The notes below the pieces were generated by a model. It had not been told where the DNA came from and did not search any database. It saw nothing but the letters and a program-made list of their open reading frames with translations. From a virus, in IMG/VR virus record IMGVR_UViG_3300027763_000037, positions 47,922-111,921 of that record: 64,000 bases of DNA; one strand, given 5' to 3'. Numbering within the stretch: position 1 is the first letter of the stretch; the number at the start of each line of letters is the position of its first letter. The translations under genes and the position numbers were made by a program. This document shows, piece by piece, positions 22,286-50,541 of the stretch.

Positions 22286-22286
22286 A

Positions 22287-33761: not shown

Positions 33762-33911
33762 TTAAGAGAAACTCATACCTCTATCATGAGAAATAGGAAA
33801 ACATCTTTCACAATAAGATCTTGATGCACTTGTAACTGGACAAGACTTAGTAACAACCTTGTGACCAAAAACAAAACACAAAATCTTTTTAGATATTAAA
33901 GTTCTACCCAT
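33762..33911 (-). CDS. Small Cys/His zinc-binding protein (49 aa, DUF1660-like)
   Basis: Not in the ORF track. MGRTLISKKILCFVFGHKVVTKSCPVTSASRSYCERCFPISHDRGMSFS has a C-x3-GH...CxRC pattern. Confidence 0.6.
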   Translation of the reverse strand: MGRTLISKKILCFVFGHKVVTKSCPVTSASRSYCERCFPISHDRGMSFS

Positions 33912-34567
33912 AGTGAATCTACGCCAAGACCTCTTGGACAAATATCATATGCAATAGTAATTCTGCTCTTTTCACTCCACCATAAATCTCTTGTATGAGG
34001 GTGACCAGTTTCTGAAACAATTGCTCTATTGTTAATATTAACATTGTCAAAATCTTTAACTCTATCAATTTGATAAAAAGTTACAGAAGGCTCTGCATTT
34101 ACACAATAATAACCATGAAATACTGGAGCGCCTTGACCTCCCATATGGTCGTGCAAGTTCATTTTTACAGAAGATTCATCTGGATTAGCAGCAAGCCATT
34201 GCTCTCTTGTTCCAGGTAGCATCTTCTTGTCTAAGTTATACCAGCCTTTAATTGCATATTCTTGCTCATTAAAATCAATACCATAATAAGCAGATGCTTC
34301 AAAAACTAAGTCTCTCAGGGTGTCTTTTAGTTTATCTAATCCTGGGTGACTATATGTGTTTTTGTCAAATATGTTATAGTGATGAGCCAGTTGTGTCGAA
34401 GGCCCATGATCTTCATTTACTCCAATTAGTTCTTCTTTTGGAATAAAATCTCTTTGTCCTGCAACCATCTTTTTTTGATCATCAACAAGGTAATCAAATA
34501 AAGAGTCTAAATCATTATCAATAATCTTATCAAAAAACTTATGTGGTGGTTTAGACATCGCTATCAT
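33896..34567 (-). CDS. Putative 2OG-Fe(II) oxygenase, paralog 2
   Basis: HDH...FHGYYCV...HPH...RITIAYD; start revised to the ATGA overlap at 34567. Confidence 0.75.
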   Translation of the reverse strand: MIAMSKPPHKFFDKIIDNDLDSLFDYLVDDQKKMVAGQRDFIPKEELIGVNEDHGPSTQLAHHYNIFDKNTYSHPGLDKLKDTLRDLVFEASAYYGIDFNEQEYAIKGWYNLDKKMLPGTREQWLAANPDESSVKMNLHDHMGGQGAPVFHGYYCVNAEPSVTFYQIDRVKDFDNVNINNRAIVSETGHPHTRDLWWSEKSRITIAYDICPRGLGVDSLWVEL

Positions 34568-35226
34568 GATAATGGGATCCAATGCTGTTCTTGACCCATG
34601 CCGTGAGTAATTAGGTCTCTTAATGGAATAACATCGTATGCAACAGTAATTCTTGGACCTTCCCAGTCCCAGTCAGCCATGGCGTGTGGATGTCCCATTT
34701 CAGAAAGAATTGCTCTATTATCAATATTAACATTCTCAACATTTTTATTGAATACACGATAATGTGTTGTTGATGGAGCAGCCTTTACACAATAGTATCC
34801 ATGGAAGTTTGGGGCGCCTTCTGGACCATGATCATGCCAATCTAGTTTGCCTTTGCCTTTATTGGTAATGTTAAACCATCCCTGAAGCATATATTGGTTT
34901 GCATTAAAATCAACACCATAATAGTCACATGCTTCTTTTGTCATATCTCCAATTGCCTTGTATAGGCTATAAAGTTCTTTACTGTGAAATTGGAAAACAT
35001 TATATTGTCTCCACTTCATTGTTGAAACACTGTTTGACTGCTTCCATATTTCATTTTCTCCAACTGGAGTTACGCCAATAATTTCTGCGTTTTGAATTTT
35101 AGTATATCGATCTTGAAGATCTGCTGACAACTTGTTTAAATCATTACCAAGAAATCTCTCAAAAAACCTATGAGGTTGTGGAGACCTGCTTGTACTTTCC
35201 ACCATCGGTGGGTAGTTTGAATTCAT
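34564..35226 (-). CDS. Putative 2OG-Fe(II) oxygenase, paralog 1
   Basis: GWFN...HDH...FHGYYCV...HPH...RITVAYD double-stranded beta-helix pattern (TIGR02466-like). Confidence 0.75.
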   Translation of the reverse strand: MNSNYPPMVESTSRSPQPHRFFERFLGNDLNKLSADLQDRYTKIQNAEIIGVTPVGENEIWKQSNSVSTMKWRQYNVFQFHSKELYSLYKAIGDMTKEACDYYGVDFNANQYMLQGWFNITNKGKGKLDWHDHGPEGAPNFHGYYCVKAAPSTTHYRVFNKNVENVNIDNRAILSEMGHPHAMADWDWEGPRITVAYDVIPLRDLITHGMGQEQHWIPLS

Positions 35227-35267
35227 ATTTTTCCCCTATTCAACTAGTAAATAAAGTATATCACATG

Positions 35268-36830
35268 CTACGCTTGTGGTGTTTGAGTCTGATCGTAGAA
35301 GTCTTTACCATCATGAGTAAGTGAATGCTCAGTGAAGAATATGTCATAAGGCTCACAGTTAATTGTGATAACATTTGTTGTTCCCTCAAGAACTTCAAGT
35401 TCAGTAATAGGTGACCACGCTGATAAAGAGTAATCCCATACCAAGTCTGTTTGAACTATATCTTTAGCCCATTCAAATGTTGATACTCCTGCTCTTTGTA
35501 CAAGAATTAGGTGGTTTGGAGAGAATGCGTCTCCATTTAGTCTAACTGTTGAGTCTACAGGGTGTGTGCTTATTCTATTAATTGTTGTTACAACATTTTC
35601 TGCTGTAGTTAAGTCTGCTGATGCTGACCAATCATAGATTGTTGCTGACTCTGTATTTTCAAGTCCTGGAAGAGACAATGACTTTAATTCATCGCCAACA
35701 TTAAGATCTTGAGCCTCTTTAAGGCTTCCATCAGACATTCTAACCTTAGTCTTAGGTCCAAGAGAGTAGTATCCTGACCATGGTGAGAATCCGAATACAC
35801 CGAATGGTGAGAATCCGAATACACCGAATGGTGAGAATCCGAATACACCGAATGGTGAGAATCCAAACACTGAGAATGGTGAGAATGGTGAGAATCCGAA
35901 TACACTGAATGGTGAGAATCCAAACACGTAGAAAGGAGTAAATGAAAACACTGAAAATGGTGTTACAGGTGCAAACGAAAATACGCTAAATGGAATAAAT
36001 GAGAACACTCCGAATGGGGCAAACGAGAACACTCCAAATGGAGTAAACGAGAATATAGGTGTGAATGAAAACACTCCGAATGGTGTAAACGAGAATACGC
36101 CAAATGGTGCAAATGAGAACACTCCAAACGGTGCAAATGAGAACACTGGTGTAAACGAGAATACTCCAAATGGAGCAAACGAGAATACACCAAACGGTGT
36201 AAATGAGAATGTTGTTACGGATGCAGAGGCACTAGATAGTTCTGACCATCCCTTTGAGTTATAGGCACGAACACGATATGTCTGTGATGTTCCTGCTTCT
36301 TGGTTTACATTTATAGATGTTCCAGAAGTATAAACTGTCTTTCCATCTGATGATGTAATTTCATAGTTTGTTATTGCTGCTCCGCCATTATCTGCAGGTG
36401 CTTGCCAAGATACGCTATCGTAGCCTGCTCCAGTTGGTGAAGAGGCTGTAACTGATGTTGGTGCATCAGGAACTGTAATAGATGCTACTGATCCAGCATT
36501 ATATTCGCTTGAATCTCCATATGATGTGTTAACTGCTTTAATTGTCCATGTGTAGTTTGCTCCGCCACGAAGACCTGTGGCTACGTAAGGTGAAGAAGTT
36601 ACACCAGGGAAAGTCTTATTTCCATAATTTGGGTTATATGCTGTAAGGGTATAGGATGTTGGTGCTGCTCCGTATGTTGGGGCTGTAAATGTAATTGTAA
36701 ACTGTCCACTTAAGTATGTAAAACCAGAGTTAACTACAGAAACAATCGTTGGTTCTGTTGGGCTAATCGCCTGATATCTTGGAACAGTCTTTGACTGCTT
36801 TCCTGCTTTACCACCTTTACGAATTGGCAT
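35268..36830 (-). CDS. FN3 + Phe-rich FxFxP repeat + C-terminal Hint domain protein
   Basis: FN3 motifs (VPDAPTSV...SWQAPADNGGAAITNY...YRVRAYNSKGWS); 18 F-x-F-x-P units; Hint blocks SLGPKTKVRMSDG...DLNVGD, SPNH and C-terminal LTHD. Confidence 0.85.
   Translation of the reverse strand: MPIRKGGKAGKQSKTVPRYQAISPTEPTIVSVVNSGFTYLSGQFTITFTAPTYGAAPTSYTLTAYNPNYGNKTFPGVTSSPYVATGLRGGANYTWTIKAVNTSYGDSSEYNAGSVASITVPDAPTSVTASSPTGAGYDSVSWQAPADNGGAAITNYEITSSDGKTVYTSGTSINVNQEAGTSQTYRVRAYNSKGWSELSSASASVTTFSFTPFGVFSFAPFGVFSFTPVFSFAPFGVFSFAPFGVFSFTPFGVFSFTPIFSFTPFGVFSFAPFGVFSFIPFSVFSFAPVTPFSVFSFTPFYVFGFSPFSVFGFSPFSPFSVFGFSPFGVFGFSPFGVFGFSPFGVFGFSPWSGYYSLGPKTKVRMSDGSLKEAQDLNVGDELKSLSLPGLENTESATIYDWSASADLTTAENVVTTINRISTHPVDSTVRLNGDAFSPNHLILVQRAGVSTFEWAKDIVQTDLVWDYSLSAWSPITELEVLEGTTNVITINCEPYDIFFTEHSLTHDGKDFYDQTQTPQA
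35778..36209 (-). repeat. Degenerate 24-nt tandem repeat encoding F[SG]F[TSA]PF[GS]V octapeptides
   Basis: Three identical copies of TGGTGAGAATCCGAATACACCGAA at 35781-35852 on the plus strand, followed by diverged copies. Confidence 0.95.
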
Positions 36831-36860
36831 TTTATTCCCCTTTTCTTATTTGTATTTTAA

Positions 36861-38810
36861 TTATGCTGTTAGATCGCCTGAAAGGATCCAGATATTGGTA
36901 TCACGCTTTGTTAGCGTTCCACCTGAGTACTGAGCACGAAGTTTTAGTCCTGGAGTATAATAAATTGTTACTCCTGATGCTGCAGCAATTGTTGTTTGTC
37001 CAGTTCCCTTTTGGAAAACGTCAACAGATGTTCCTATTGGAAATGCTACTGTAGCATTAGTTGGAACAGTTATAGTTGTTGCGCTTGAAGAGTTTGTTTC
37101 AACCATATTTGTTGCATCAGATAGAGCAAGTGTATAACTTGTTGTCTGTGTATTAAATGATGACAGTGTTGCTGAATCAAGTTCAGTTTTACTTGCCTTA
37201 AGAGCAAGAGCATTTGTCATTGTAGTTGAGAAGTTTGCATCGCTACCCAGTGCTGTTGCCAACTCATTTAATGTATTAAGAGTTCCAGGTGCTGAAGCAA
37301 CTAACGCTGCAATTGCTGAGTCAGCATATGCTGTTGTTGCTATCTGAGTATTATTTGTTCCTGCTGTTGCTGTAGGAGCAGTTGGTGTACCAGTAAATGC
37401 TGGTGATGCAACTGATGCCTTCAAAGCATCTGCAGTATCTACATATGTCTTAGTAGCCAAGGCTGCTGTATCAGCAATTCCGTGGATATCTGTAGTGTCT
37501 GTAGCATGTGATGACAATGCTGAATCAGAGTATGTCTTAGTAGCAAGTGCTGCTGTATCAGCAATACCATGAACGTTTGTTGTTGCTGAATTATGTGTTG
37601 TAAGTGCTGTTCCTGCTGCTGTTGCAGCATCTGCAATTGCTTCTGTTTTAGCAGTTGCTACGTTTGCTGTAGTTGCTAGAAGGGCTGTATTAGCAATTCC
37701 ATGAACGTCAGTTGTGTCTGCTTGGTGAGATCCTACTGCTGAATCAGCGTATGTCTTTGTGGCAAGTGCTGAAGTATCAGCAATACCATGAACATCAGTT
37801 GTATCTGATCCGTGAGCAAGAACTGCTGCATCTGCCTTAGCCTGTGCTCCAGAAGATGTTTCAAGAACTGAAGTATCTGCAATTCCGTGAACAGAAGTTG
37901 TATCTGATGAGTGTGTTCCAAGAGCAGTAGTTGCAGCGGTATCTGCTGCTGCAATAGCCTCTGACTTTGCAGTTGCTACATTTGCTGTAGTTGCAAGAAG
38001 TGCTGTGTCAGCAATTCCATGAACGTTTGTTGTATCTGTTCCATGTGTTCCAATTGCTGTATCTGTATAAGATGCTGCTGTCTGTGTTGCTGCTGTCTCT
38101 GCTGCATCTGCTGCTGCATCTGCATATGCCTTTGTAGAAAGAAGGGCTGTGTCAGCAATTCCATGAACATTTGTGGTATCTGCAGTATGGGTATTAATTG
38201 CTGTCTCTATTTCAGTTGCAACATATGTATTTCTTGCAGTTGTCATACTTGTTTCTGATGCATCAATTTCAGACTCAACAAATGCTTTTGTTGCAAGCAA
38301 TGTTGTATCTGCAATACCATGAATGTTTGTTGAGTCGTTGCTAAACTCTGTGATAGCAGTTGAAATTGCTGTAGCAACTGTTGCATTTGTAGCAAGAACA
38401 GTTGTATCTGTAATTCCATGGACATTTGTTGTATCCGCATTGTGTGTATTAACTGCACCATTAACTACGGATCCAATCATGTCTACTGCACTGGCTAATT
38501 CTCCAAGAGTGTCGAGTGCTGCTGGGGCATTTGTTATAAGAGACCCTAGTTGTGAGATAGGAACTTGGCCTTGGCTATTAAGTGTGGCAACACCACCAGG
38601 TACAGCCATTTGTGAATCTAAAATAAAACCTGAAGTATCAAGGTCTCCAAAATCTTTAAAATACGACAGGGCAGACCATTGGTTGGTACCGTCACCCATC
38701 TTAAACATACCTGAATCAGTTTCAAAACCAATTTCACCTGCTGCTAATACTGGGTTTGCTGCAGTCCATTGTGACGCAGTACCTCTACGCTGTTGCATTC
38801 TAGTTGCCAT
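36861..38810 (-). CDS. Tail fibre-like protein with Mtd_N-like N-terminus, nine DTT-x-VHGIADT repeats and a C-terminal GDLTA domain
   Basis: QQRRGTASQWTAANPVLAAGEIGFETD...GDG...W (Mtd_N); APGTLNTLNELATALG and SPAFTGTPTAPT fibre motifs. Confidence 0.85.
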   Translation of the reverse strand: MATRMQQRRGTASQWTAANPVLAAGEIGFETDSGMFKMGDGTNQWSALSYFKDFGDLDTSGFILDSQMAVPGGVATLNSQGQVPISQLGSLITNAPAALDTLGELASAVDMIGSVVNGAVNTHNADTTNVHGITDTTVLATNATVATAISTAITEFSNDSTNIHGIADTTLLATKAFVESEIDASETSMTTARNTYVATEIETAINTHTADTTNVHGIADTALLSTKAYADAAADAAETAATQTAASYTDTAIGTHGTDTTNVHGIADTALLATTANVATAKSEAIAAADTAATTALGTHSSDTTSVHGIADTSVLETSSGAQAKADAAVLAHGSDTTDVHGIADTSALATKTYADSAVGSHQADTTDVHGIANTALLATTANVATAKTEAIADAATAAGTALTTHNSATTNVHGIADTAALATKTYSDSALSSHATDTTDIHGIADTAALATKTYVDTADALKASVASPAFTGTPTAPTATAGTNNTQIATTAYADSAIAALVASAPGTLNTLNELATALGSDANFSTTMTNALALKASKTELDSATLSSFNTQTTSYTLALSDATNMVETNSSSATTITVPTNATVAFPIGTSVDVFQKGTGQTTIAAASGVTIYYTPGLKLRAQYSGGTLTKRDTNIWILSGDLTA

Positions 38811-38863
38811 TTATCTCTCCTTATGGGGGCTGCCCATTATTCTCTTATTATAACATCAATTTA

Positions 38864-39313
38864 TTAATTGAAATTATCTACTGCACTACCGCCATCGAAT
38901 ACTACTGTCCAAGTTGTATCACTTGGTCCACCAGCATCCAAACCTACACCCAATGGGCTATTAAAAGTTCCAGCATTATAGAACTGCGAAACAATGAAAC
39001 CTGTTCCATCAATTGCAGTATCGTGAATGTGCTCTGGAAGTGTGTTTGTATCATCAATAGTTGCTTGGGTATACCAAGAACCGTTGTAATAAAAATTAAT
39101 TCTACTTGTTAAAGTGTCTAACCATTGTGTTCCATTAGTTGGTGAAGAAGGAGCAGTTGTGCCTACAGCCATTGAACGACTATCGACATACTCCTTAGTT
39201 GCTGCATGTGAAGCAAGAGTTGGATCTCCCACTGTTACTGCATCTCCGAATGTACCGCCGTTTGATACGACTAATCCATTCTTGACTCTGAAGTCTTTAT
39301 CGACTGTTGTCAT
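38864..39313 (-). CDS. Small fibre/decoration protein
   Basis: N-terminus MTTVDKDFRVKNGLVV is paralogous to the upstream gene; HAATKEYVD and APSSPTNGTQWLD fibre motifs. Confidence 0.65.
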   Translation of the reverse strand: MTTVDKDFRVKNGLVVSNGGTFGDAVTVGDPTLASHAATKEYVDSRSMAVGTTAPSSPTNGTQWLDTLTSRINFYYNGSWYTQATIDDTNTLPEHIHDTAIDGTGFIVSQFYNAGTFNSPLGVGLDAGGPSDTTWTVVFDGGSAVDNFN

Positions 39314-39348
39314 TTACTACTCCCTCTTCCAACTATTTTTATTTTTTA

Positions 39349-41142
39349 TTACGCTACTAGTGTTCCGACAACAGTCACTGTTGAGGTGTTGTTGGCAGTT
39401 GTTACTAGAAGTTGTACATCTGTTCCTGAAATACCTGCTGAAATTGTTGATGCTGAACCATTAGTTCCAACAATTCCGTACTCAGTAATTGCAATATTGT
39501 CTGAAGTATCAAGTGTTAAAAGTACCTTTGAGATTTCAGTGTGTGTTCCGTAGGCAACCTTTACAAGGTATTCTGCTGAACGGTAGTCAGCCTTTGCAAA
39601 AGCATGTGCTACCTGAATTCCTGCTGTTGGTGCTGACAGTGTTGCTGCAACTTGCTTAGCAACCGAGTTTAACGCAACCGCTGTAAATGAACGAGTTGTT
39701 CCATCTACTGCAGCACGAGCACGAGCATCTGTAAAGTACTTGTTTGTACCTTCTGCAAGATCAGTTGTTGTAGAATCTGCTACACCATTTTCTGCTGATA
39801 TTACAAGACCGTTTTCATCACCTGTTATTGTAATGTTTGTCTTTGTAGCACCAACGATAAGTGCTGCTGCTGCAGTCTTAGCACGAGTTGTTGTAAAGTA
39901 TTGAGAAGTTCCTTCTGCAACATCAGATGTTGTAAGTGCATCAGCATAAGCCTTTGCATCTACTTCAGCCTGATCTGCATATGTCTGATAAGCAGTTGTA
40001 ATTGCTGTCTCACGAGTGTCTGTGTATGCCTTTGCATCTACTTCAGCCTGATCTGCATAGTTCTGGTAAGCAGTTGTGATTAAGCCTTCACGAGTGTCTG
40101 TGTATGCTTTAGCATCTGTCTCTGCGCCATCTGCATAACCTTGTGCTGCTGTATCAAGAGTTGAAATTTCTCCATCTACATAACCCTTTGTTGCTGCATG
40201 TAGATTTAATGTTGGTGCTCCTGACAATGTCAAGGCTCCAGTCATTGTATCTCCAGCCTTTGCTACTCTTCCAGCAACTGCGTTAGCAGCGTCAGTAGCA
40301 TAAGATGGGTTGTTAGCAATTGCTGCAGACAACTCATTCAATGTGTCAAGTAGTGCTGGTGCTGCTCCAACAAGATCAGAAACTTCCTGATCTGTGTAAG
40401 CCTTAGAATCTACAAGTGCCTGTGCTGCTGCACCCTTTGCATCATATGTTGTTGCAAGGTTAAGACCTGTTATTGCTGTATCTGTGTAAGTTTCTGATGT
40501 TGAAATTGCATCTGCTTCTGCTTGATCTGCGTAAGCCTGAGTTGCAAGAACATCTGCACCCCACTTAACAGAAGAACCTGCTGCTGGAGTAAGAACGATA
40601 TGAGAATCAGAATTGATTGTCATTGATCCTGCGCCAGTGAAGTTAAGTGTATCTCCAATAGTCTTATTTGTTAATGTTTGTGTGTCTGATGTTCCTACTA
40701 CGTTACCAGTTACACCGTGTGCAGAAGTATCAGATTCGTGATCTGCAAGATCTCCTGCTACAAGTCCTGCTTCTGTTGCTGCAGTTCCTGCTGCATCGTA
40801 TGCTGCTGCTGTAGCATCAAGTGCTCTTTGGTTTGTAAAGTACTTATTTGTTGCATTTTCTGCAAGGTCTGCAGTATCGTGGTTTGAAAGGCTTGATACT
40901 GTTCCTGTTACGTTACCAGTTAAATCTGCTGTAATTGTTCCTGCAGCAAAGTTACCATTAGCATCACGCTTTACAACCTTGTTTGCTTCGTTAGCAGATG
41001 TGGCTGTTCCGCCAATAAGACTAACAATGTAGTCTTGATCTGCTTGCTTCTTTGTAAGAACGTCAAAATTGTTAACTGTCGCTGTTGTACCTTCAACAAT
41101 GAGACCACTCTTAATTTTAAAATCTTTATTTACTGTTGCCAT
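39349..41142 (-). CDS. Fibre-like structural protein with internal repeats
   Basis: Three T-x-D-[LV]-AE-x-x-x-x-YFT repeats; APALLDTLNEL; duplicated ADQAEVDAKAY segment (DNA direct repeat near 39950 and 40028). Confidence 0.75.
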   Translation of the reverse strand: MATVNKDFKIKSGLIVEGTTATVNNFDVLTKKQADQDYIVSLIGGTATSANEANKVVKRDANGNFAAGTITADLTGNVTGTVSSLSNHDTADLAENATNKYFTNQRALDATAAAYDAAGTAATEAGLVAGDLADHESDTSAHGVTGNVVGTSDTQTLTNKTIGDTLNFTGAGSMTINSDSHIVLTPAAGSSVKWGADVLATQAYADQAEADAISTSETYTDTAITGLNLATTYDAKGAAAQALVDSKAYTDQEVSDLVGAAPALLDTLNELSAAIANNPSYATDAANAVAGRVAKAGDTMTGALTLSGAPTLNLHAATKGYVDGEISTLDTAAQGYADGAETDAKAYTDTREGLITTAYQNYADQAEVDAKAYTDTRETAITTAYQTYADQAEVDAKAYADALTTSDVAEGTSQYFTTTRAKTAAAALIVGATKTNITITGDENGLVISAENGVADSTTTDLAEGTNKYFTDARARAAVDGTTRSFTAVALNSVAKQVAATLSAPTAGIQVAHAFAKADYRSAEYLVKVAYGTHTEISKVLLTLDTSDNIAITEYGIVGTNGSASTISAGISGTDVQLLVTTANNTSTVTVVGTLVA

Positions 41143-41160
41143 TTTTTATATCTCCTTTTA

Positions 41161-41607
41161 TTATGCCTTAAGTCCCATACGAGCATATCGTACAGTGACT
41201 GGCTTGATCGCAGGATCTGGAGTGACTGTTAAGGCCACGGTATTTCCAGTGCGAGAGACATTAATGGTGCCAATATTCCCATCATTGTCGATTGTTCCAT
41301 ACTCGCTGACTGATACATTTGCACCGTCAACAAGAATACTTAGTTCAGTTGCGTAGAACTTATTGTCCCCTGCGGAGGTCTTTGATATTGAAACAATATA
41401 CTTAACCAAACGCCAAACTGTTGCATCAAAGTTATCAATAACAGTTACGTTCTCAATTCCATTGACTGTGTTTTCATTGTTACCCGCTGATCCCAAATCT
41501 GTTGACTGAGAAACAAGGGTATCGATTAAATCTACGTAATTTTCTTGAGTAGGTCTATCACCTGTTTGAAATAGACTCTTTACTCCTGGGACTGATATCT
41601 TTGCCAT
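41161..41607 (-). CDS. Structural protein paralogous to the C-terminal domain of 39349-41142
   Basis: RLVKYIVSI...VSEYGTI versus RSAEYLVKV...ITEYGIV. Confidence 0.6.
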   Translation of the reverse strand: MAKISVPGVKSLFQTGDRPTQENYVDLIDTLVSQSTDLGSAGNNENTVNGIENVTVIDNFDATVWRLVKYIVSISKTSAGDNKFYATELSILVDGANVSVSEYGTIDNDGNIGTINVSRTGNTVALTVTPDPAIKPVTVRYARMGLKA

Positions 41608-41628
41608 AGTGAGATTATAGCATGTATT

Positions 41629-41853
41629 TTAAAGTATATAGTTATTCAAACCAATTACAGCAATGCCAATTGGTGCTGGAGATGATGCGGAATAGCCTGG
41701 AATCTGAATGTTTGTTATACGTATTCTAAATGGTAATACTTCGTTAATCTTAACTATAGGGGAAGGCTTTGAAATCTTTATAGCCCCGTAAGTTACAGCA
41801 TTAATTGCTGAAACTTTTCTCTTAGTATTATTATTGATTATTGAAGTAGCCAT
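41629..41853 (-). CDS. Hypothetical protein
   Basis: Start coupled to the upstream stop; ends APIGIAVIGLNNYIL. Confidence 0.55.
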   Translation of the reverse strand: MATSIINNNTKRKVSAINAVTYGAIKISKPSPIVKINEVLPFRIRITNIQIPGYSASSPAPIGIAVIGLNNYIL

Positions 41854-42260
41854 TAATCAGTTACATCTTCAATAACAATTACGCTACCCTGGCAAACTGT
41901 CCAAACAGTCTCATTCCCTGGGGCAGACAACTGAATATCAAATATGTCTCCAGTCTGCAATGTTAAAGATTGTGTTGCTGATAAAAATACTGTAAATTCT
42001 CCTGGAAGGTCGTCTGGATCTGCAGCGGGACTTAGAGTCATAACAACCGAAGCATCGTCACTAATAAGTGCTGGAGTGGTATTGGGTCTTTTAATTTTCA
42101 TAGCAATTGCCCAGTCTGGAACATTTAAAGGTGCTTCCAAATCATCCGTTACATAAACTTTAAATGAGGCAGTGTCCCCACGGACAAATGTCCAAGTAAC
42201 CTGTGGTGGCTTTGAGCCAACATCGTACTGAGATTTTTGAGAATTTCTGCTTGTTGCCAT
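41853..42260 (-). CDS. Ig-like/BppU-like structural protein, paralog A
   Basis: VRGDT...FDIQL...G-x-V-x-V-x-EDVT pattern shared with 49388-49798 and 50658-51035. Confidence 0.6.
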   Translation of the reverse strand: MATSRNSQKSQYDVGSKPPQVTWTFVRGDTASFKVYVTDDLEAPLNVPDWAIAMKIKRPNTTPALISDDASVVMTLSPAADPDDLPGEFTVFLSATQSLTLQTGDIFDIQLSAPGNETVWTVCQGSVIVIEDVTD

Positions 42261-42287
42261 TTTTAAATTATACCACGAATCTTTAGT

Positions 42288-43238
42288 TTATACCCAGTCT
42301 TTTGGAAACTCTGTGAAGTCATCATAGCCTATAAATCTAAAAGCATCTGACTTTTTAGAACAAAACATCTCTCTTTGAATATAGGCAGTAAAAGTGCTTC
42401 TAGGGGTTCCAATAAAATCCTTTGACTGACACATTACTAATAATCCAATCAGACCAAAAACAATTTCTGACTGACTAGGTAAAGCCAAAAACTCATTTGA
42501 AAAATTATCTACAATGTAGTCATCTAAAAATACAATATCTTTATTTTTAAATATTTCATTGTTTACATCATCTGTTAATACTACAGTTTTTAAATCATTA
42601 TTTTTAAGCGCTTTATCAAAATCTTTCTCTGAAAAACTAAATGTTCTTTCTGCATGATCTGTAAGCCTTACGTGCATGCCACGAAATTCTCCAAGACTCT
42701 TAGCAACCTTGTTTGCTAAATCAACATACTCCTCTTTAAAAGTCACCTTTATCTTATTTAAAAATTCATCATCTTGATTGGCAAAAAAAGTTTCACGGTT
42801 GGCCAGGTTTGGACCAGACATATTATACGACTTGCCTTCTTCAAAAATTAATTCTTTTTTATTAAAATGCTCAGCCCCTACTTGAATTTCTTTATTAACA
42901 TTTGCATAATCTAAAAATAAGTTATCAGATATTTTAATTTCATCTTTAGAAAACTGATCTATTTTTCCAAAAGCAATATACTCCCAAACCAAAGATTTAT
43001 CAAAATCTATTAACTCAAAAAAGTTTACCATTTCTCTTTTAACAATTGAATCTCTTTTTCCAAAAACAACATTATCACTAATTGGAAAACTATCAAGCCA
43101 ATTTTGTTGCTTATCAAGTAAATTATAGATAACAAGTTTTTTCTTTGTTATACAAGAAAGACCAAGTCCTACTTCTAAACTAAACAGTCTGTTTGTTAGT
43201 CCTGCATGGTGCAATCTGTAAAATAAAAAGTTATCCAT
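42288..43238 (-). CDS. O-fucosyltransferase-like GT-B glycosyltransferase
   Basis: GLTNR, GMHVRLTD (H-x-R-x-x-D), LTDD and FIGTPRSTFT motifs, as in POFUT/GT23-type enzymes. Confidence 0.75.
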   Translation of the reverse strand: MDNFLFYRLHHAGLTNRLFSLEVGLGLSCITKKKLVIYNLLDKQQNWLDSFPISDNVVFGKRDSIVKREMVNFFELIDFDKSLVWEYIAFGKIDQFSKDEIKISDNLFLDYANVNKEIQVGAEHFNKKELIFEEGKSYNMSGPNLANRETFFANQDDEFLNKIKVTFKEEYVDLANKVAKSLGEFRGMHVRLTDHAERTFSFSEKDFDKALKNNDLKTVVLTDDVNNEIFKNKDIVFLDDYIVDNFSNEFLALPSQSEIVFGLIGLLVMCQSKDFIGTPRSTFTAYIQREMFCSKKSDAFRFIGYDDFTEFPKDWV

Positions 43239-44256
43239 TTTGTTTTTTTATCCATTCATATGTTTGTTTGATTCCATCTTTAAGAGACATTGAGTAATCC
43301 CAATCTAACTTTTCTCTAACTAAATCATTGTTAGAGTTTCTTCCTCTAACTCCAAGTGGGCCAGGAATATGCATTTTACTAAGAGTTTTACCTTCAATGC
43401 TACAAGCAATATCTACCAGTTGATTTATAGTAACCATTTCTTCAGAACCTATATTGACAGGACCAGTAAAATCTGACTCCATAAGTCTTCTTGTTGCTTC
43501 TATACATTCATCTATGTATAGGAATGATCGAGTTTGTTCTCCATCCCCCCAAATTTCTATAAATCCATCTGCTTGTATAACTTTTCGACACATTGCTGCA
43601 GGAGCCTTTTCTTTTCCACCATCCCAAGTTCCTTCTGGTCCATAAATATTATGATATCTTGCAATGGCTACTGGGATTTTATTATTTCTATTAAAGGCTA
43701 AAAACATTCTTTCGCTAAACAATTTTTCCCAGCCATACTCACTGTCAGGATCTGCAGGGTATGCATCAGACTCCTTAAGTCCAGGATTATTAACATCTAA
43801 CTGCTTATAGTCAGGATACATACATGCAGAACTTGAATAAAATATTTTAGTTTTATTTATATTATATTTTTCATTAAGCCTGGACTGTGCTCTTAACAAA
43901 TTAAGGTTTATCAGAGCAGAGTTTTCCATAATCTGAGAATCATTTAAACCAGTAAATATATATCCAGCCCCACCCATATCGGCAGCAAATTGATATACCT
44001 CATCAAAAGAAGTTATAGAGCGATAAGGAACTTCGTGATAAAAGTTTCCTTGATATCCTTTAAACTGAATAACTTTTTCAACATTTTCATATACGGATAA
44101 ATCTCTTTCAATAAACTCGTCTGCTTCTGTTTCTGAAAAGTCTGGATGTTTTAAATCAACACCACGAACCCAGTATCCTTCTGATTTTAATCTTTTAACC
44201 ATGTGGCTTCCAATGAAGCCTCCTGCACCAAAAACAAGTGCTGTTTTTTGTGTCAT
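43231..44256 (-). CDS. GDP-mannose 3',5'-epimerase-like NAD-dependent epimerase
   Basis: GAGGFIG, AADMGG, SSACMYP, YGWEK, EKAPAA and GVRGRNS motifs; start revised to the coupled ATG at 44256. Confidence 0.9.
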   Translation of the reverse strand: MTQKTALVFGAGGFIGSHMVKRLKSEGYWVRGVDLKHPDFSETEADEFIERDLSVYENVEKVIQFKGYQGNFYHEVPYRSITSFDEVYQFAADMGGAGYIFTGLNDSQIMENSALINLNLLRAQSRLNEKYNINKTKIFYSSSACMYPDYKQLDVNNPGLKESDAYPADPDSEYGWEKLFSERMFLAFNRNNKIPVAIARYHNIYGPEGTWDGGKEKAPAAMCRKVIQADGFIEIWGDGEQTRSFLYIDECIEATRRLMESDFTGPVNIGSEEMVTINQLVDIACSIEGKTLSKMHIPGPLGVRGRNSNNDLVREKLDWDYSMSLKDGIKQTYEWIKKQNG

Positions 44257-44798
44257 TATGCTAAACCGTTTTTCAGTGCTCCCCAAGTGCCATTTCCTTT
44301 TGCTTGAACAATAACTATTCCAGGATTTCCTTGGTGTGCAACAATACCTACTGCAACTCCAGAGTTTGCTGGTTTTGCTCCTGATGAGTCATTGGCCCCA
44401 GCAACTAATCCACCAGTTTGTCCAACGTAGAGAATAGACCCACTTGCAAATGTTGAAGTATTTAAACCTTCAAGAACTCCACCAACTACAACAACCCCGT
44501 TTGAATTATTTGCTATTGTTGTTTTTGATAAACCTAATAATGTTTGTGATGATGTTCCAGTTAGTCTTGTTATTAATGTTCTTTCTGATCCAGAACTATA
44601 GCCAGAAGCATATACTGGATCCCCCGCTAAAATAGAAGATCCAGTTTCATTTCTTACACTAATTTGAAAATATGAAAGTCCTAATGGAGGAAGAATCTCT
44701 TCTAATTTAGTTACTAAATCTTCAATATCTCCGTGTACATTAACGTTATCGCTTGCTAAAGGATAAGGTAAGCCGAGACCGTTTAATTTTGTTGCCAT
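44256..44798 (-). CDS. Structural/decoration-like protein
   Basis: LPYP...NVHGDIEDL anchor-like N-terminus; VRNETG...GDPVY...G-x-V-x-V-x-G capsid-cement-like pattern. Confidence 0.5.
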   Translation of the reverse strand: MATKLNGLGLPYPLASDNVNVHGDIEDLVTKLEEILPPLGLSYFQISVRNETGSSILAGDPVYASGYSSGSERTLITRLTGTSSQTLLGLSKTTIANNSNGVVVVGGVLEGLNTSTFASGSILYVGQTGGLVAGANDSSGAKPANSGVAVGIVAHQGNPGIVIVQAKGNGTWGALKNGLA

Positions 44799-44826
44799 AG
44801 TACTTTTATTATACCATTGTTCAGAG

Positions 44827-44856
44827 TTGACTTTTAGAGAAATATCATGATATACT
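44827..44856 (+). promoter_or_regulatory. Sigma70-type promoter for the transglycosylase gene
   Basis: TTGACT-N18-TATACT with extended TG; leader hairpin at 44862-44885. Confidence 0.65.
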
Positions 44857-44903
44857 AGGTAGTAACACCTACCAAGGTGTTATTGTTTTCTAAGGAGGAA
44901 ACT

Positions 44904-45467
44904 ATGATTAAATTTATCGAAAGAAACAAAGAGATCATTAGCACACTCAGTATCGTAGTACTAGTAACGGTTTTGTCAAACTCTGCTAATGCTATTTCAG
45001 ATCTTGATACAAAGAACAATCTTAGCCTGGAACAGGCTCAGACATCGGAAACCGCCTCGAAAGAGGTTTTTTTGGTTTCTAAGGCAAAAAAACTAGAGAG
45101 TTTTGAGAATAAGACATCTCTGACCGATATTGAACTAAAGGAACTTCTTTCTCTAGTAGGATTTAAGGGTAAAGACCTTGTGGTTGCTTGGGCGGTTGCT
45201 AAAAAAGAATCTAATGGACGACCATTGGCTTTTAATGGCAATCATAAGACTGGAGACTCATCTTATGGCATGTTTCAAATTAATATGATCGATTCCCTTG
45301 GTCCTGACCGTAGAGACAAGTTTGATCTTGATTCAAATGCAGAACTATTTAATCCCGTCAAGAATGCAGAGATTGCATACTACATGACAAATGGTGGAGA
45401 CGACTGGTCTTCTTGGAAAGGCATTACGCCAAAGACCAGAATGTGGATGAAGAAATTTCCTAAGTAG
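44904..45467 (+). CDS. Secreted or membrane-anchored lysozyme-like lytic transglycosylase
   Basis: AVAKKES (catalytic Glu), SYGMFQIN, LFNPVKNA and DWSSW motifs; N-terminal hydrophobic segment; SD AAGGAGG before ATG 44904. Confidence 0.85.
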   Translation: MIKFIERNKEIISTLSIVVLVTVLSNSANAISDLDTKNNLSLEQAQTSETASKEVFLVSKAKKLESFENKTSLTDIELKELLSLVGFKGKDLVVAWAVAKKESNGRPLAFNGNHKTGDSSYGMFQINMIDSLGPDRRDKFDLDSNAELFNPVKNAEIAYYMTNGGDDWSSWKGITPKTRMWMKKFPK

Positions 45468-45702
45468 GCCATTTGTTTGCTGGGCAGGTTGCATGCAAAA
45501 GTTTTGATTTAGCAGCCATAAAACATCCACACAACTTGCATTGCTTGGTTGGCAAAAGGTTTGGACAAGACTTGCATATCTCATATCTTTGGTCTGCAAC
45601 ATTTTTATGAGCATATTCCGTATTTGGTTTAATAAAATCCCACGGTCTTGTTTCTCCTAAGTTTTGTTTATATTTTTCCCAGGCTGAAAGTTCTTCACTC
45701 AT
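45460..45702 (-). CDS. Cys-rich small protein (DUF6171-like)
   Basis: R-x-x-ICKSC...CKLCGCFM...CP-x-x-KW pattern. Confidence 0.7.
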   Translation of the reverse strand: MSEELSAWEKYKQNLGETRPWDFIKPNTEYAHKNVADQRYEICKSCPNLLPTKQCKLCGCFMAAKSKLLHATCPANKWPT

Positions 45703-45934
45703 TTACCCATTCCGTTCTATATTCATTTAGTATAGACTCTGCAATAATATCATTAATAATAACAGAATATGAATTTCCTTCAAAAAAATATTTTAGTATA
45801 TGTGTTGCTTCTTTTTTTATATTTGGTTCAATTGTATATGTTGTATTTTCTCTATTTTTAAAAAAAGAAACTAAAACATTTTCTCCAGGTAGAGAAAGAA
45901 TTAAATTTTCTTTTTTATAAATATTTATTGTCAT
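45695..45934 (-). CDS. Hypothetical protein
   Basis: Co-oriented ORF whose stop overlaps the next gene. Confidence 0.45.
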   Translation of the reverse strand: MTINIYKKENLILSLPGENVLVSFFKNRENTTYTIEPNIKKEATHILKYFFEGNSYSVIINDIIAESILNEYRTEWVNE

Positions 45935-45964
45935 AGTACCAATTCTATCATATTACCGCAATCT

Positions 45965-47695
45965 TCAAGCCATACCTGGACAACACTCATTATTGTCAGG
46001 ATTAAATGCACCTGGGCATTGCTCTTCATTTGAAGCATAGTAACATCCTGGGCCATAACCTGATGGGGCAGGAGTAAACGAGAATGCTGGTGTAAATGTA
46101 AATGTAGCAGTAGGAGTAAATGTAAACACACCAAATGGTGAGAATCCAAATACATAGAAAGGTGTAAATGTAAATACTGAAAATGCTGGGACGGGTGTAA
46201 ATGTAAATACTGTAAATGCATCAATTAAATCTCCACAGCATTGCATTCCAACTCCTATTTGATAGTCATTAGGCCCTCCAAGATATTCTCTTCCTAATTC
46301 TGCACAAGTATAATTACTTGCCCTAGTGGTCATTCCAGGACATTGAGGTTTGGCTACTGGAGTAAATGTAAACACACTAAATGGTACAAATGAAAAAACT
46401 CCAAATGGTGTAAAAGTAAATGCTGGAGTACAGGCTTCATTTTCTTCCCAAGGTCCAGACCTTCCTGCTATATAAAATGCTTGACTATAACTTGAAGTAG
46501 TGCAGTCTGCATTAGTAGTGGTTACTGTTCTTGTTGTAGCATATCTTCTTCTTGAGTCTACGTTACAGTTTCCCCAATCGCCCCAATCATAGGTATAGGT
46601 AGTAGAAGAATTGCAGGTCACTAAACAATCTCTTTGCTCTCTCCAAGGACCTGAATTTCCTACTGTATAAAAATATTGAGTTCCAGTGCTGACAGAACAG
46701 TCTGCATTAACTGTAGAATAATCTCTATATGTTGCCCATCTAGACTGTGTTCCATTAGAGCATGTCTCCCATTCTCCCCAACCGTAAGTATATGTTGTTG
46801 CTACTGTACATCCTGCAGCAACGTAATTCCACATAGTTAAATTTACACTTGTTCCTGAAGCAACTGCAGTTCCTGATGATGGTGATTGGCTTTGTACTTT
46901 GCCACTATTAGCAGCAGTGCTTGTAGTTGTTCCTGTTGCAAAACTTCCAGTAACTAATCCTGCTGCTGTGATTGCACTTTGTGCTGCTGCAGATGTCATT
47001 CCTACAACATTTGGAACTGTTTTATCCAATATTGGTGGTGTGTCTGCATTTGTTTTTACCGTTCCTTGACCCAAAACAGATTGACCAGTTCTTCCTGGTC
47101 CAGGGTATACAAAAAGAGTTATATCATGGACATTATCTGGCGTAAGGCCAGTTGCAGTAACAGTTGTTGCGGTGGTGCCTTCTACAGAAAAGCCTGGTTC
47201 ATCATCTGAGAATCTTGGAACTACCATCAAGAAAAAAGAACCTTGTCCTGTTGACGTCCAACTAATTGTTGCTGTAGTTGTTCCAGTTGCAGTTCCTGAT
47301 ACGGTGCCAACTGTTGTACCTACTGGGGCAGGAGTAAATGTAAAAACAGTAAATGGAGTAAAAGAAAACACTGAAAATGGTACAAATGAAAACGTAACTG
47401 GTGTAAATGTAAATGGTGTAACTGGTGTAAATGTAAATACACTAAACGGAGTAAAAGAAAATATTCTATATGTAAAATCTATTGGGCTTTCATAATCAAT
47501 TAAAACTCCTGGAGTTTTTGCTTGAGTTGCTACAGTATTTGTTTTTGTATTATCTTCTTGTGTTATTGTAGATGCAACACCTACAGTCAAACCGTTGGTT
47601 TGAATTAGTGCTTCTGCTGCTTCTTTTGATATCTCAAGAATGTTTGGTACTGATACCATTCCTTTTGAAGCAGACCATTTGCTAATCCAACCCAT
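45965..47695 (-). CDS. PASTA + FN3-like + TSP1-like protein with FxFxP repeats
   Basis: Two PASTA domains (VPNIL...; VPNVVGMTSAAAQSAITAAGL...QSPSSGTAV); two WG[ED]WxxC repeats; 15 F-x-F-x-P units in three blocks; Cys-rich C-terminus. Confidence 0.8.
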   Translation of the reverse strand: MGWISKWSASKGMVSVPNILEISKEAAEALIQTNGLTVGVASTITQEDNTKTNTVATQAKTPGVLIDYESPIDFTYRIFSFTPFSVFTFTPVTPFTFTPVTFSFVPFSVFSFTPFTVFTFTPAPVGTTVGTVSGTATGTTTATISWTSTGQGSFFLMVVPRFSDDEPGFSVEGTTATTVTATGLTPDNVHDITLFVYPGPGRTGQSVLGQGTVKTNADTPPILDKTVPNVVGMTSAAAQSAITAAGLVTGSFATGTTTSTAANSGKVQSQSPSSGTAVASGTSVNLTMWNYVAAGCTVATTYTYGWGEWETCSNGTQSRWATYRDYSTVNADCSVSTGTQYFYTVGNSGPWREQRDCLVTCNSSTTYTYDWGDWGNCNVDSRRRYATTRTVTTTNADCTTSSYSQAFYIAGRSGPWEENEACTPAFTFTPFGVFSFVPFSVFTFTPVAKPQCPGMTTRASNYTCAELGREYLGGPNDYQIGVGMQCCGDLIDAFTVFTFTPVPAFSVFTFTPFYVFGFSPFGVFTFTPTATFTFTPAFSFTPAPSGYGPGCYYASNEEQCPGAFNPDNNECCPGMA

Positions 47696-47703
47696 AATTA
47701 GCC

Positions 47704-48333
47704 CTACGCTGTCAAATCGCCAATAAGAATCCAGGTATCGTTTTCAGTCTTTACTAGCGAACCACCAGAATATCTTGCAGCAATTTTCTTATTCATATTT
47801 TTACTTAAAATAGTAACACCGCTTGCTTCGCTAATTAAGACCCCACCGCTTCCATATCTAACTAAATCTACACGCTGACCAACTACAATAGGAACCGATG
47901 CATTGGTTGGTACTGTTATAACAACATCGTTATTTGATGTAATTTTTAAGGTTTTTCCAACATCTGCCAAACTTAATGTTTTGCTTGCAGTTACTGCAGT
48001 TAAATAAACAGAGTCAGAATATTCTCTCCAAGATCCATTATAATAATATTGAATCTGATTTATAATGTCTCCATTATCAGTTTGCTGAATAAAGCAAACA
48101 AGACCATTAACTGGATTTGTAATAATGTCATTTCGTGATGATGGATTTAAAAAGTTATTTACTCCACCTTTTGCACGTACAACAGTTTCATAAGTTGCTG
48201 AGTTCAAATATTTATGTGTTCCACTCCAAACATAGTTTGCAGTTGTGTTTGTACTTCCAGTTACTGGATACCATGTATCTAGTTCTGAATCGTATAGGTA
48301 TGCTAACTTACCTTCATCGCTAACTATTGACAT
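47704..48333 (-). CDS. Fibre adaptor-like protein with a C-terminal GDLTA domain
   Basis: C-terminal ~95 aa paralogous to 36861-38810 (ITVPTNA...YSGG...WIL-x-GDLTA); likely start at the coupled ATG 48333. Confidence 0.7.
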   Translation of the reverse strand: MSIVSDEGKLAYLYDSELDTWYPVTGSTNTTANYVWSGTHKYLNSATYETVVRAKGGVNNFLNPSSRNDIITNPVNGLVCFIQQTDNGDIINQIQYYYNGSWREYSDSVYLTAVTASKTLSLADVGKTLKITSNNDVVITVPTNASVPIVVGQRVDLVRYGSGGVLISEASGVTILSKNMNKKIAARYSGGSLVKTENDTWILIGDLTA

Positions 48334-48779
48334 TATACTCCTATCGGCTTCCATGCATTTGTTAATGAATCAAAAATATACATTGTTAGTGGAACTGAGT
48401 CTCTATCAACCCAAAGTGCTCCGTCTGTTACTGTATTTGATGCTGGTGGAGTATTTGTAAAAATTGCACTTGGAAAAACAACAGAATTGGAAGCAGATGA
48501 ATTTTTCTTCATCCAGACATATCCTTCTATTGGAGTTACTGGAGCATCATTTGTTACAGAAGATCCAATTCCTCTACTATTAATTGCTGATATATCGTTT
48601 TTCATCAATTGTAAATGATGAGCAATTGATTTTTCTTGAATTTCTGAAGTTGATGTTGGAGGGGTTGTTGTTCCATATAAAAAAAGCCTTAATGCTGCGA
48701 CAATATCTGCAGCGTCACCGTATTCTGGTATCTGAGTATTAAAAGGTCCGTTTAAGTTCGGATTTATATCTTGAGCCAT
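48333..48779 (-). CDS. Structural/fibre-like protein
   Basis: AP-x-x-P-x-x-G-x-x-W and DGALWVD fibre motifs; SD GAGGTGG. Confidence 0.55.
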   Translation of the reverse strand: MAQDINPNLNGPFNTQIPEYGDAADIVAALRLFLYGTTTPPTSTSEIQEKSIAHHLQLMKNDISAINSRGIGSSVTNDAPVTPIEGYVWMKKNSSASNSVVFPSAIFTNTPPASNTVTDGALWVDRDSVPLTMYIFDSLTNAWKPIGV

Positions 48780-49815: not shown

Positions 49816-50541
49816 TTACCTGACTGAAACTGCTATACTTTTTAACAAGACTATGGCGTCCATATCGGTTCTAACTTGTGGACTGATACCAGAAATCTTG
49901 TCTGCATCTGAATTTAAAAATAGGTTTTGAGTGACAGAAAGTTCATAGGAATACTGATATTTTAAAGATGCTACAAAAGATATAACTTCAGACTTGCTTT
50001 CAGGAAAAAATGATCTAACCCATACTTCTGTATTTGAAGAATATGTAGTGATTTCAAAATCATAAGTTATTTGTAGTTGGGTGCCAAGTTCTAATCCTTT
50101 AAGATTAATTCTTTTTGTTTCTTTTCCATATAGACCCTGAGAATTTGATGGAAGATATTTTTCAACTGTTTCACGTGAAACATTTCCAAGAGTTAAGGAT
50201 ACCCATCCGTCTTCTCCCTGAGACGCTCCAGTTTTTGTTGGTATCAGGTTATCAGATACGTACTTTGCCCAACCTGCTGGCTGATTGTAGTTTGGTAAAG
50301 AACTTTTTCCATCCTGTCCTTTTTGTCCAGTATCTCCCTTTTGTCCTTTTTGTCCATCTTGTCCAGGTTCACCTTTAGGGCCTTGCTGTCCAGTTTCTCC
50401 TTGAAGACCTCTTGGTCCTTGAGGGCCTGGAACTGGAATATATCCAACAGAACTATCTGTAATTATACTTTGCTGGTTTTCAACTTGAGATGCGTATGCT
50501 GCCTTCTTGCTTATTGGAAAATCCATATTTTTAGAAACCAT
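49816..50541 (-). CDS. Collagen-like protein
   Basis: About 14 consecutive Gly-X-Y triplets (GPQGPRGLQGETGQQGPKGEP...); SD GGAGG. Confidence 0.85.
   Translation of the reverse strand: MVSKNMDFPISKKAAYASQVENQQSIITDSSVGYIPVPGPQGPRGLQGETGQQGPKGEPGQDGQKGQKGDTGQKGQDGKSSLPNYNQPAGWAKYVSDNLIPTKTGASQGEDGWVSLTLGNVSRETVEKYLPSNSQGLYGKETKRINLKGLELGTQLQITYDFEITTYSSNTEVWVRSFFPESKSEVISFVASLKYQYSYELSVTQNLFLNSDADKISGISPQVRTDMDAIVLLKSIAVSVR

Follow-up and report, generated by a model that had tools for sequence, protein, structure and literature searches.

Two Phe/Pro-repeat proteins beside the fibre genes of a lake phage

The analysis concerns a window of 64,000 nucleotides (bases 47922-111921) of the 111.9-kb IMG/VR phage record IMGVR_UViG_3300027763_000037, which derives from an uncultured lake phage, and focuses on two of its genes, both adjoining fibre genes, whose products (P0001 and P0002) carry tracts of a Phe/Pro-rich FxFxP repeat. 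The repeat, fibre, oxygenase-like, and sugar genes of the window, and the small gene after the oxygenase-like pair, lie on the minus strand. P0001, the type A repeat protein (35268-36830; 520 amino acids, aa), consists of a basic N-terminus, two FN3 domains (aa 25-205; 36216-36758; PF00041, E 1.5e-9; FN3 tandems matched at Z about 15), the repeat tract (aa 208-350; 35781-36209), and a C-terminal Hint domain of bacterial intein-like (BIL) character (aa 356-510; 35301-35765) that was recognized by profile, structure match, and residue conservation. P0002, the type B repeat protein (45965-47695; 576 aa), has no Hint domain, and its parts run in the order PASTA, repeat block 1, a weak FN3-like domain, PASTA, two Cys/Trp modules, block 2, a Cys module, block 3, and a 34-aa Cys-rich tail. 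The three blocks, located by regular expression (block 1, aa 79-122, 47330-47461; block 2, aa 426-446, 46358-46420; block 3, aa 497-542, 46070-46207), serve as connectors between modules.

A regular-expression count of F[STG]F[TSAVI]P returned the 18 copies in P0001 (aa 208-350) and the 15 copies in the three blocks of P0002 that the initial annotation had reported, and the motif was found in no further frame of the window. The 18 cores of P0001 are chiefly arranged as octamers F-x-V-F-[SG]-F-x-P within an uncharged tract of which Phe makes up about 37%; the charge-free stretch described earlier is real but was put at 144 residues, and it extends over 162 (aa 198-359, with no D, E, K, R, or H). 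The stretch said to be common to both proteins was likewise found, with 12 residues exact and 45 of 51 nucleotides identical over a 17-residue motif, and in P0002 it lies in block 3. Moreover, the proposal that selection acts on the repeat peptide is supported by the 80-88% of identical-peptide unit pairs that differ at one or more synonymous sites, and the repeat tracts appear in Tandem Repeats Finder as period-24 arrays of 70-93% identity.

The AlphaFold2 (AF2) model of P0001, built on a 42-sequence alignment, is confident for the FN3 pair (aa 25-205) and the C-terminal domain (aa 355-510), both at a predicted local distance difference test score (pLDDT) of about 90, and leaves aa 214-353 at pLDDT 30-38 with no secondary structure, on which basis the tract is probably an extended sticky stalk or anchor. 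A cohesive repeat of the FG-nucleoporin kind was considered and rejected, as the units abut without hydrophilic spacers (~10-20 residues) and Phe accounts for the high share given above.

Each repeat gene directly follows a fibre gene. Upstream of P0001 lies fibre protein 1 (36861-38810; 649 aa), with an Mtd_N-type N-terminus (PF18454) and matches to PHROG tail-fibre families, and directly upstream of P0002 lies fibre protein 2 (47704-48354; 216 aa), with PHROG tail and minor-tail C-terminal matches. The C-terminal domain of fibre 1 (~95 aa, ending GDLTA) is common to fibre 2 (45% identity, E 1e-19), and this pairing of a repeat gene with a fibre gene bearing the common domain recurs across related loci, where fibre 1 is matched in 95 of 116 and fibre 2, beside the repeat gene, in 83 of 116. 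From this gene order we infer a virion location for P0001 and P0002.

The two Cys/Trp modules of P0002 (46421-46828; aa 290-425) display an invariant W-x-x-W...C...R...R...C pattern that is also present in loci L009, L082, and L091; in relatives they read WSEWSAW...RTRTRTR, which resembles a thrombospondin type-1 repeat (TSR). The matches behind this likeness stayed below significance (best PDB matches pleiotrophin, E 0.33, and the MIC2 TSR, E 0.81; Pfam TSP1, E 0.26-1.8). Eukaryotic TSRs are substrates of POFUT2, and a weak O-fucosyltransferase (O-FucT)-like gene and a GDP-sugar epimerase/reductase gene lie 3 kb downstream.

A terminal Hint domain resembling bacterial intein-like domains

The assignment of the P0001 C-terminal domain as Hint was confirmed by its fold, profile, and catalytic residues. 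The modelled domain (aa 352-512) superimposes on Tetrahymena BUBL BIL2 (6y75_A) with Z 18.7 and a root-mean-square deviation of 1.9 Å over 138 residues, followed by the Ssp DnaB mini-intein variant 6fre (Z 17.4), hedgehog 1at0 (16.6), and the C. thermocellum BIL 2lwy (16.4). This is further strengthened by a profile of 32 Hint tails, which matches inteins and a BIL domain (4e2u, E 2.4e-6; 2lwy, E 3.2e-6); Pfam models on the domain all stayed below their own cut-offs. In P0001 the residues in question are the nucleophile Ser356, block B S437-P-N-H440, and the end His506-Asp507, with Gly508 at +1 as the first of the 13 residues that follow. Across the 32 tails, position 1 is Cys in 23 and Ser in 9, all but one (31) have Ser or Thr in block B, the place of the block B His is taken by H, E, and Q in 14, 14, and 4 tails, respectively, and the domain ends in HN (11), YN (7), HD (7), or others (7; FD, YH, YS, HP). 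The +1 residue in relatives is A, L, K, R, G, or M, or the protein terminates there.

Auto-cleaving C-terminal intramolecular chaperone domains of the Peptidase S74 type occur on phage tailspikes and fibres, and the Hint domain of P0001 is like them in being a predicted self-removing C-terminal domain that follows a repetitive segment on a phage appendage protein; the fold and chemistry are nevertheless unrelated (Ser-Lys dyad protease versus Hint acyl shift), and trimerization is hypothetical here. The likeness to the Hog domain of Hedgehog (1at0) is that of a C-terminal Hint whose first residue undergoes an acyl shift and so sets free the functional part at the N-terminus, although P0001 has no sterol-recognition region after Hint and a Ser as nucleophile, and any adduct is hypothetical. 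A close resemblance in kind is to BIL domains, for which the absence of a +1 nucleophile after the domain and of a homing endonuclease are defining features (PMC4031507). P0001 agrees in having a Hint of ~155 aa with no endonuclease insert, no +1 nucleophile, Cys or Ser at position 1 in the family, and block B T/SxxH, and in being placed in a non-essential, variable surface-type protein rather than a conserved enzyme, for which cleavage rather than splicing would be expected. It differs in lacking the C-terminal His-Asn of type A BIL domains, which some relatives have, in its Ser start, and in that the phage Hint is terminal (0-13 residues after it), preceded by a Pro/aromatic repeat, and encoded beside fibre genes. 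Identity as an intein was rejected, given that only the 13 residues starting with Gly follow it in P0001 and a median of 2 in the family, and a mention of 'Hint' for phage phiCbK in the literature concerns ordinary inteins.

Size, spread, and variation of the repeat family

Gene contexts were gathered via degenerate DNA patterns and a related-locus search. A search that used just the tract as query returned at least 473 clusters at 90% identity; their heads are FN3 or PASTA, and no cluster has an informative name. The degenerate DNA pattern for FxFxPFxVFxFxPF was found on at least 116 IMG/VR contigs and the pattern for (PFGFT)3 on 64 further ones, which brings the viral contigs to at least 180 together. 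A HMMER scan with the Hint profile yielded 984 clusters at 50% identity (E <= 1e-10). The Hint is terminal in 143 of the best 150 clusters, and among the best clusters with enough upstream sequence (n = 125) it is preceded by FxFxP or PFxFx in 49, by otherwise Phe-rich sequence in 18, and by other sequence in 58, the listed examples of the last being chiefly Pro-rich repeats (FFxPP, YFPP, WFPP, PTAPVAA, and poly-Pro).

Within the family, heads are of two types (type A, FN3; type B, PASTA), tails of four (Cys-start Hint, Ser-start Hint, no tail, and a 45-aa Cys-rich tail), and the repeat copy number ranges from 2 to 24. The octamer logo reads F-x-V-F-G-F-S-P with position 2 alone free, and the flavour of the repeat varies by lineage (FxVFGFSP, PFGFT, PFFPP, and PT-rich). 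Hint-less relatives with no tail stop 2-7 residues past the last unit (WG, FGFR, or SRG), and P0044 and L028 have a P0002-type body that ends in a Ser-type Hint as found in P0001. Specifically, it should be noted that a fibre-type relative (L004, 6923-8731) displays long PTPTPT linkers between small Cys-rich modules together with a few FSVFGFSP units; since PTPTPT stands there where P0002-type proteins have FSFTP, PT and FxFxP tracts are interchangeable connectors. Taken with the varied Pro/aromatic repeats that precede Hint, this indicates that the tract behaves like a lineage-specific flavour of Pro/aromatic linker or stalk and not like a fixed fold. PT linkers and extensin-like hydroxyproline (Hyp)-rich repeats share with it the periodic Pro, the uncharged composition, the variable copy number, and co-encoded prolyl 4-hydroxylase (P4H)-type enzymes, and relatives swap it with PT linkers, whereas the phage tract stands apart in its Phe content of about 37%, its strict octamer, and its frequent position at the protein end rather than between domains.

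As a separate observation, type A and type B proteins of the same genome tend to have matching tails (both WG, both FGFR, or a Hint subtype ending YHLYPID; L006, L019, L072/L074, L027/L082), which suggests 3'-end exchange between type A and type B genes.

When 185,579 species genomes were scanned with the pattern, 70 matches resulted, among which only four loci, on three contigs of metagenome-assembled genomes (MAGs), proved to be true members, and the idea of a cellular origin of the family was dropped on these numbers. One of the three contigs, a Lake Mendota 'Flavobacterium' scaffold, carries both type A and type B. Matches in Bathyarchaeota (L201-L264, many MAG contigs) were rejected: they belong to a conserved T-rich element whose short pseudo-open reading frames of 30-60 codons translate as LPFFFFPFFVFAFFPF, which is probably non-coding and is unrelated to the phage family. 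Searches of 50,697 deposited phage genomes by megablast and tblastn, for which the queries were the region, P0001 and its Hint domain, and the A2-type protein described below, returned nothing, as did a related-locus search based on P0020 only; no usable match came from the ESM Atlas, and the literature yielded no published description of the Phe/Pro-repeat family or of a terminal Hint on phage appendage proteins. By portal protein, the closest cultured relatives of the phage are Streptomyces BE-cluster phages (for example Daubenski, 47% identity), and as these infect Streptomyces the host is probably an actinobacterium. Judged by sequence, P0001 and P0002 are members of a large family of putative fibre partners, previously undescribed, that was seen only in uncultured phages of aquatic origin related to the Streptomyces BE-cluster phages.

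Oxygenase-like genes coupled to the repeat genes

Genes for 2-oxoglutarate (2OG)-Fe(II) oxygenases and prolyl-hydroxylase-like proteins are among the commonest unexplained genes in aquatic phages. Two genes that follow P0001 (protein 1, 34564-35226, 220 aa; protein 2, 33896-34582, 228 aa, matched in 61 of 116 loci) were initially annotated as paralogous enzymes of this class, and a small 49-aa protein (33762-33911; phrog_2670), a candidate Zn protein in the initial annotation, which keeps its position in 36 loci, comes after the pair. Their paralogy is borne out (36% identity, E 2e-44); the term oxygenase comes from the double-stranded beta-helix (DSBH) fold of the AF2 model only, as these A2-type proteins have no Pfam, NCBIfam, or PDB sequence-profile match and, compared by hhalign with genes of the PF13640 type, show no similarity at profile level (probability 0.7%). 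The model is confident (pLDDT 88.6; predicted template modelling score 0.88), and its best structure matches are the uncharacterized 3bvc (Z 16.2) and 2rg4 (Z 16), followed by the prolyl hydroxylases PHD2 (3ouj, Z 13.8), P. putida P4H (13.0), and PBCV-1 vCPH (12.4). His131, His133, His142, His179, His181, and Arg192 of protein 1 are conserved, in the pattern H131-D-H133, H142, H179-P-H181, R192, that is, H-x-H rather than H-x-D. The A2 family has 1331 unnamed metagenomic members and none in the deposited phage genomes.

A further gene, 4.1 kb downstream of P0001 and after the ribonucleotide reductase (RNR) gene, encodes a PF13640 P4H-type 2OG-Fe(II) oxygenase (31112-31642; 176 aa), and its earlier description as P4H-like holds (E 5.4e-7, 30.9 bits against a cut-off of 27); its HxD...H triad is intact, with H104, D106, and H155 invariant in its alignment. 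In every one of the 14 near-complete genomes (13 relatives and this one), the type A tract is followed on its own strand by A2-type genes, adjacent in 8 and at 1.3-4.4 kb in 6, and one PF13640 gene lies 1-8 kb downstream of type A. The cultured relative Daubenski, whose portal gene, like that of other BE-cluster phages, closely follows an RNR gene, lacks the repeats, an A2-type gene, and a PF13640 gene. When loci were centred on A2 instead, a type A gene with at least 4 repeats was found directly upstream in 74 of 80; among the six exceptions, L165 and L173 keep a type A gene with 2-3 units, L135 and L166 have about 1 kb of upstream flank or less, and the other two are L191, with 3.3 kb of upstream flank, and L174.

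This coupling persists through rearrangement and through replacement of the enzyme. In the PFGFT phages, which are more divergent (portal identity about 47%), RNR has been relocated upstream and the A2 genes remain downstream of type A. The PFFPP lineage has no A2 genes, and its slot is filled by a tandem array of 3-8 PF13640 genes, each scoring above the Pfam cut-off; in 35 of 37 loci a PF13640 gene begins no more than 1.5 kb from the type A gene. A PF13640 gene likewise follows in a PTAPVAA-type relative. Adjacency that is kept through a swap of oxygenase family, copy-number expansion, and rearrangement is better evidence of coupling than synteny alone, and it supports a link, drawn from sequence, between the repeat genes and the oxygenase-like genes. 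The co-occurrence with oxygenases that the initial annotation had set as a test was found for type A, by the count of 14 of 14; type B never has an adjacent A2-type gene. Of the proposal that the repeats are hydroxylase substrates, it is the gene-order tie that stands, the chemistry being a conjecture built upon it.

The PBCV-1 P4H acts on Pro-rich repeats, and a PF13640-type hydroxylase together with GT60 forms the enzyme pair of Dictyostelium cytoplasmic Hyp-glycosylation. The present system is like PBCV-1 vCPH (5c5t) and Dictyostelium PhyA-Skp1-Gnt1 in its PF13640 genes, in the window and in tandem arrays by repeat genes, and in a GT60 gene (PF11397) elsewhere in the genome; it differs in that the phage motif FxFxP is unlike X-Pro-Gly or PAPK, A2 has neither HxD nor sequence similarity, and GT60 is missing in half of the relatives.

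With respect to the sister-phage arrays themselves, seven or eight tandem PF13640 paralogues stand right after an FN3-(PFFPP)n-Hint gene in L337 (11324-17853) and also in L338, L341, L344, L357, and others, and one paralogue in such arrays has an N-terminal match to a CDGSH-type iron-binding zinc finger.

A proposed fibre-partner protein with a Hint cap and a modified stalk

We favour, as moderately probable, an explanation in which P0001 and P0002 belong to a family of fibre partners with a self-cleaving Hint and a stalk tract modified by the neighbouring oxygenases. In this scheme, N-terminal folded binding domains (two FN3 in type A; PASTA and small Cys modules in type B) are joined to the uncharged Phe/Pro tract. 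An N-to-O acyl shift at Ser356, followed by resolution of the ester, is the most likely order of events; cleavage would free an 18-kDa Hint and leave a mature FN3-FN3-tract protein (aa 1-355) with the tract at its C-terminus. Self-removal of the Hint is suggested by its terminal position, the conserved nucleophile at its first residue, and the existence of Hint-less variants that end at the predicted junction. P0002 follows the same overall plan without a Hint. Since each gene follows a fibre gene with the common ~95-aa domain, the mature proteins probably ride on the neighbouring fibres. The A2-type paralogues and the PF13640 enzyme past the RNR gene would be the likeliest modifiers of the tract, with prolyl hydroxylation as the default guess.

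The interest of this pattern is twofold. Irrespective of lineage and of oxygenase family, the oxygenase-like genes go together with a single class of product, a Pro/Phe tract on a probable fibre-partner protein, and this pairing offers a concrete, testable substrate for orphan phage oxygenases. In addition, the terminal Hint cap would be a widespread use of intein-like chemistry in phage appendage proteins for which we found no description, and a Hint that ligates rather than merely cleaves would amount to a novel route of virion assembly with potential use in protein engineering.

Several observations weigh against the explanation favoured here. Glu or Gln replaces the block B His in half of the family's Hint domains, and the Hint of P0001 ends in His-Asp, not His-Asn. 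The A2-type proteins have no sequence similarity to known oxygenases and display H-x-H in place of H-x-D. Type B proteins bear the repeat with no A2-type gene beside them, and a fragment (L026, 33% complete) has type A and then RNR with no A2-type gene. Moreover, every genome with repeats comes from a single broad group of phages in which gene order is conserved, and co-location may hence be partly inherited synteny; it is also gene order only that places the proteins on the virion.

Two alternatives: possible ligation, or a spacer beside unrelated genes

It would be odd for cleavage to leave a stalk with nothing attached at its far end, and this favours an alternative in which the Hint ligates in the manner of Hedgehog or BUBL, the (thio)ester being resolved by another molecule (a Lys of the fibre domain, a virion protein, or an envelope lipid or sugar) so that the head is tethered via the stalk. 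Hedgehog and BUBL BIL domains transfer the N-terminal fragment to a nucleophile, and they are, respectively, among the good structure matches of P0001 Hint (1at0, Z 16.6) and the best one (BIL2, Z 18.7). Furthermore, the legible upstream segments of the best clusters are mostly linker-like Pro- or aromatic-rich repeats, and linkers normally join two things, while every repeat gene is paired with a fibre gene that bears the conserved C-terminal domain. Close relatives that share the heads and context but have no Hint nonetheless stop immediately past the repeat (WG, FGFR), which means that these phages can do without covalent transfer; there is no extension resembling a sterol-recognition region (13 aa after Hint in P0001, a family median of 2), and the acceptor is hypothetical. 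We regard ligation as unlikely, though deserving of serious attention.

A more specific form of this idea, and one that we consider rather doubtful, is a Hedgehog-like decoration of the fibre, in which the Hint passes an FN3 or PASTA head on a hydroxylated stalk to a virion nucleophile and so produces a covalently tethered adhesin. The acceptor would then most likely be the shared C-terminal domain of the upstream fibre, and the P4H arrays of the sister phages may serve to modify the stalk.

A further possibility, a low-complexity spacer with unrelated neighbours, also strikes us as unlikely without being far-fetched. It would have the oxygenases act on host proteins, nucleotides, or a collagen-like protein, with the gene order being inherited. 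The replacement of FSFTP by PTPTPT in L004 agrees with such a spacer, as does the freedom of the tract to vary between lineages, and the 2-6 PF13640 genes scattered through each of these genomes (in this one, two further genes at G000 22225-22476 and 11183-11437) together with the type B genes that have no A2-type neighbour agree with enzymes serving other purposes. The window also encodes a collagen-like protein (49816-50541). A simple spacer would, however, hardly need conservation at all octamer positions but one, and the adjacency survives a change of oxygenase family, expansion to 8 copies, and relocation of RNR. Neither the repeat proteins nor the A2 family turned up in the 50,697 deposited phage genomes; this gives both the look of innovations that arose in the uncultured lineage, which likewise speaks against unrelated neighbours.

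The collagen-repeat protein (PF01391), which belongs to the late block, is in its own right a further candidate prolyl-hydroxylase substrate.

Improbable alternatives: glycosylation, a beta-helical shaft, and peptide precursors

The initial annotation had proposed that the repeats are O-glycosylated by products of nearby sugar genes, and the corresponding alternative, that the tract is hydroxylated and then O-glycosylated via the genes at 42288-44286 into a glycosylated filament or shield, now appears improbable. The accessory insert at that position encodes a GDP-sugar epimerase/reductase-like protein and a weak O-FucT-like protein. Assignment of the former as an epimerase holds up (PF01370 and PF16363, with a match to an NCBIfam GDP-fucose synthase-like model below cut-off), while the label 'POFUT-like' has as its sole basis a sub-threshold PF10250 match (E 0.031). 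The genome does encode a true GT60 protein (PF11397, 56 bits; G000:C1:5749-6450), a family that adds N-acetylglucosamine to the hydroxyproline of Skp1, and a weak GT60-like gene stands in the enzyme block of L274 just after the type A gene. The GT60 gene of this genome is, however, outside the window and about 77 kb away, PF11397 occurs in only 6 of 13 complete relatives, and the sugar pair lies between two conserved genes; among the 43 loci that have both of these, the two stand side by side in 36, and the pair is present in 2. Glycosylation is therefore an optional trait at most, and the conserved module does not include the sugar genes named. Should the sugar pair act on a protein, the Cys/Trp modules of P0002 would be at least as plausible a target as the repeat.

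A trimeric beta-helical shaft with Hint as an auto-cleaving chaperone was also considered. The triple beta-helix of T4 gp5 is built on the repeat motif VxGxxxxx (PMC4576200), which the octamer, read as V-F-G-F-S-P-F-x, fits in one register; the strict octamer conservation with one free position and the trimeric type of the neighbouring fibre genes are in keeping with such a shaft. Orthologues with pentamers (PFGFT), PFFPP, or PT-rich tracts cannot hold the register, and for this reason the shaft is kept as a minor rival only, one that we consider very improbable. The range of 2 to 24 copies also disagrees with it, as does the AF2 monomer without strands, even if folding on trimerization may escape a monomer model.

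Finally, a multi-core precursor of the kind that gives ribosomally synthesized and post-translationally modified peptides, which the initial annotation had raised with units released as peptides after Hint cleavage, has in its favour only the repetitive core-like units and nearby genes resembling modifying enzymes and can be practically dismissed, as folded FN3 or PASTA heads stand in the place of a leader, Hint-less relatives stop right after the repeat, no cleavage sites lie between units, the annotated neighbours in the window and in L274 include no protease, cyclase, or exporter, and the genes are located in the fibre block.

Genomic setting of the window

The window contains a minus-strand late region of siphovirus type, with genes for a portal protein, a protease, a major capsid protein, and a 3275-aa tape measure protein, and its guanine-cytosine content is 31-43% over 2-kb windows, mostly 33-40%. 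Just upstream of the portal gene, a 1243-aa protein (27359-31090) without a Pfam, PHROG, or NCBIfam match is kept in 39 related loci. A gene resembling SLT/lysozyme genes (44904-45467) lies on the plus strand, opposite to the minus-strand structural block that surrounds it, and is kept in 47 loci.

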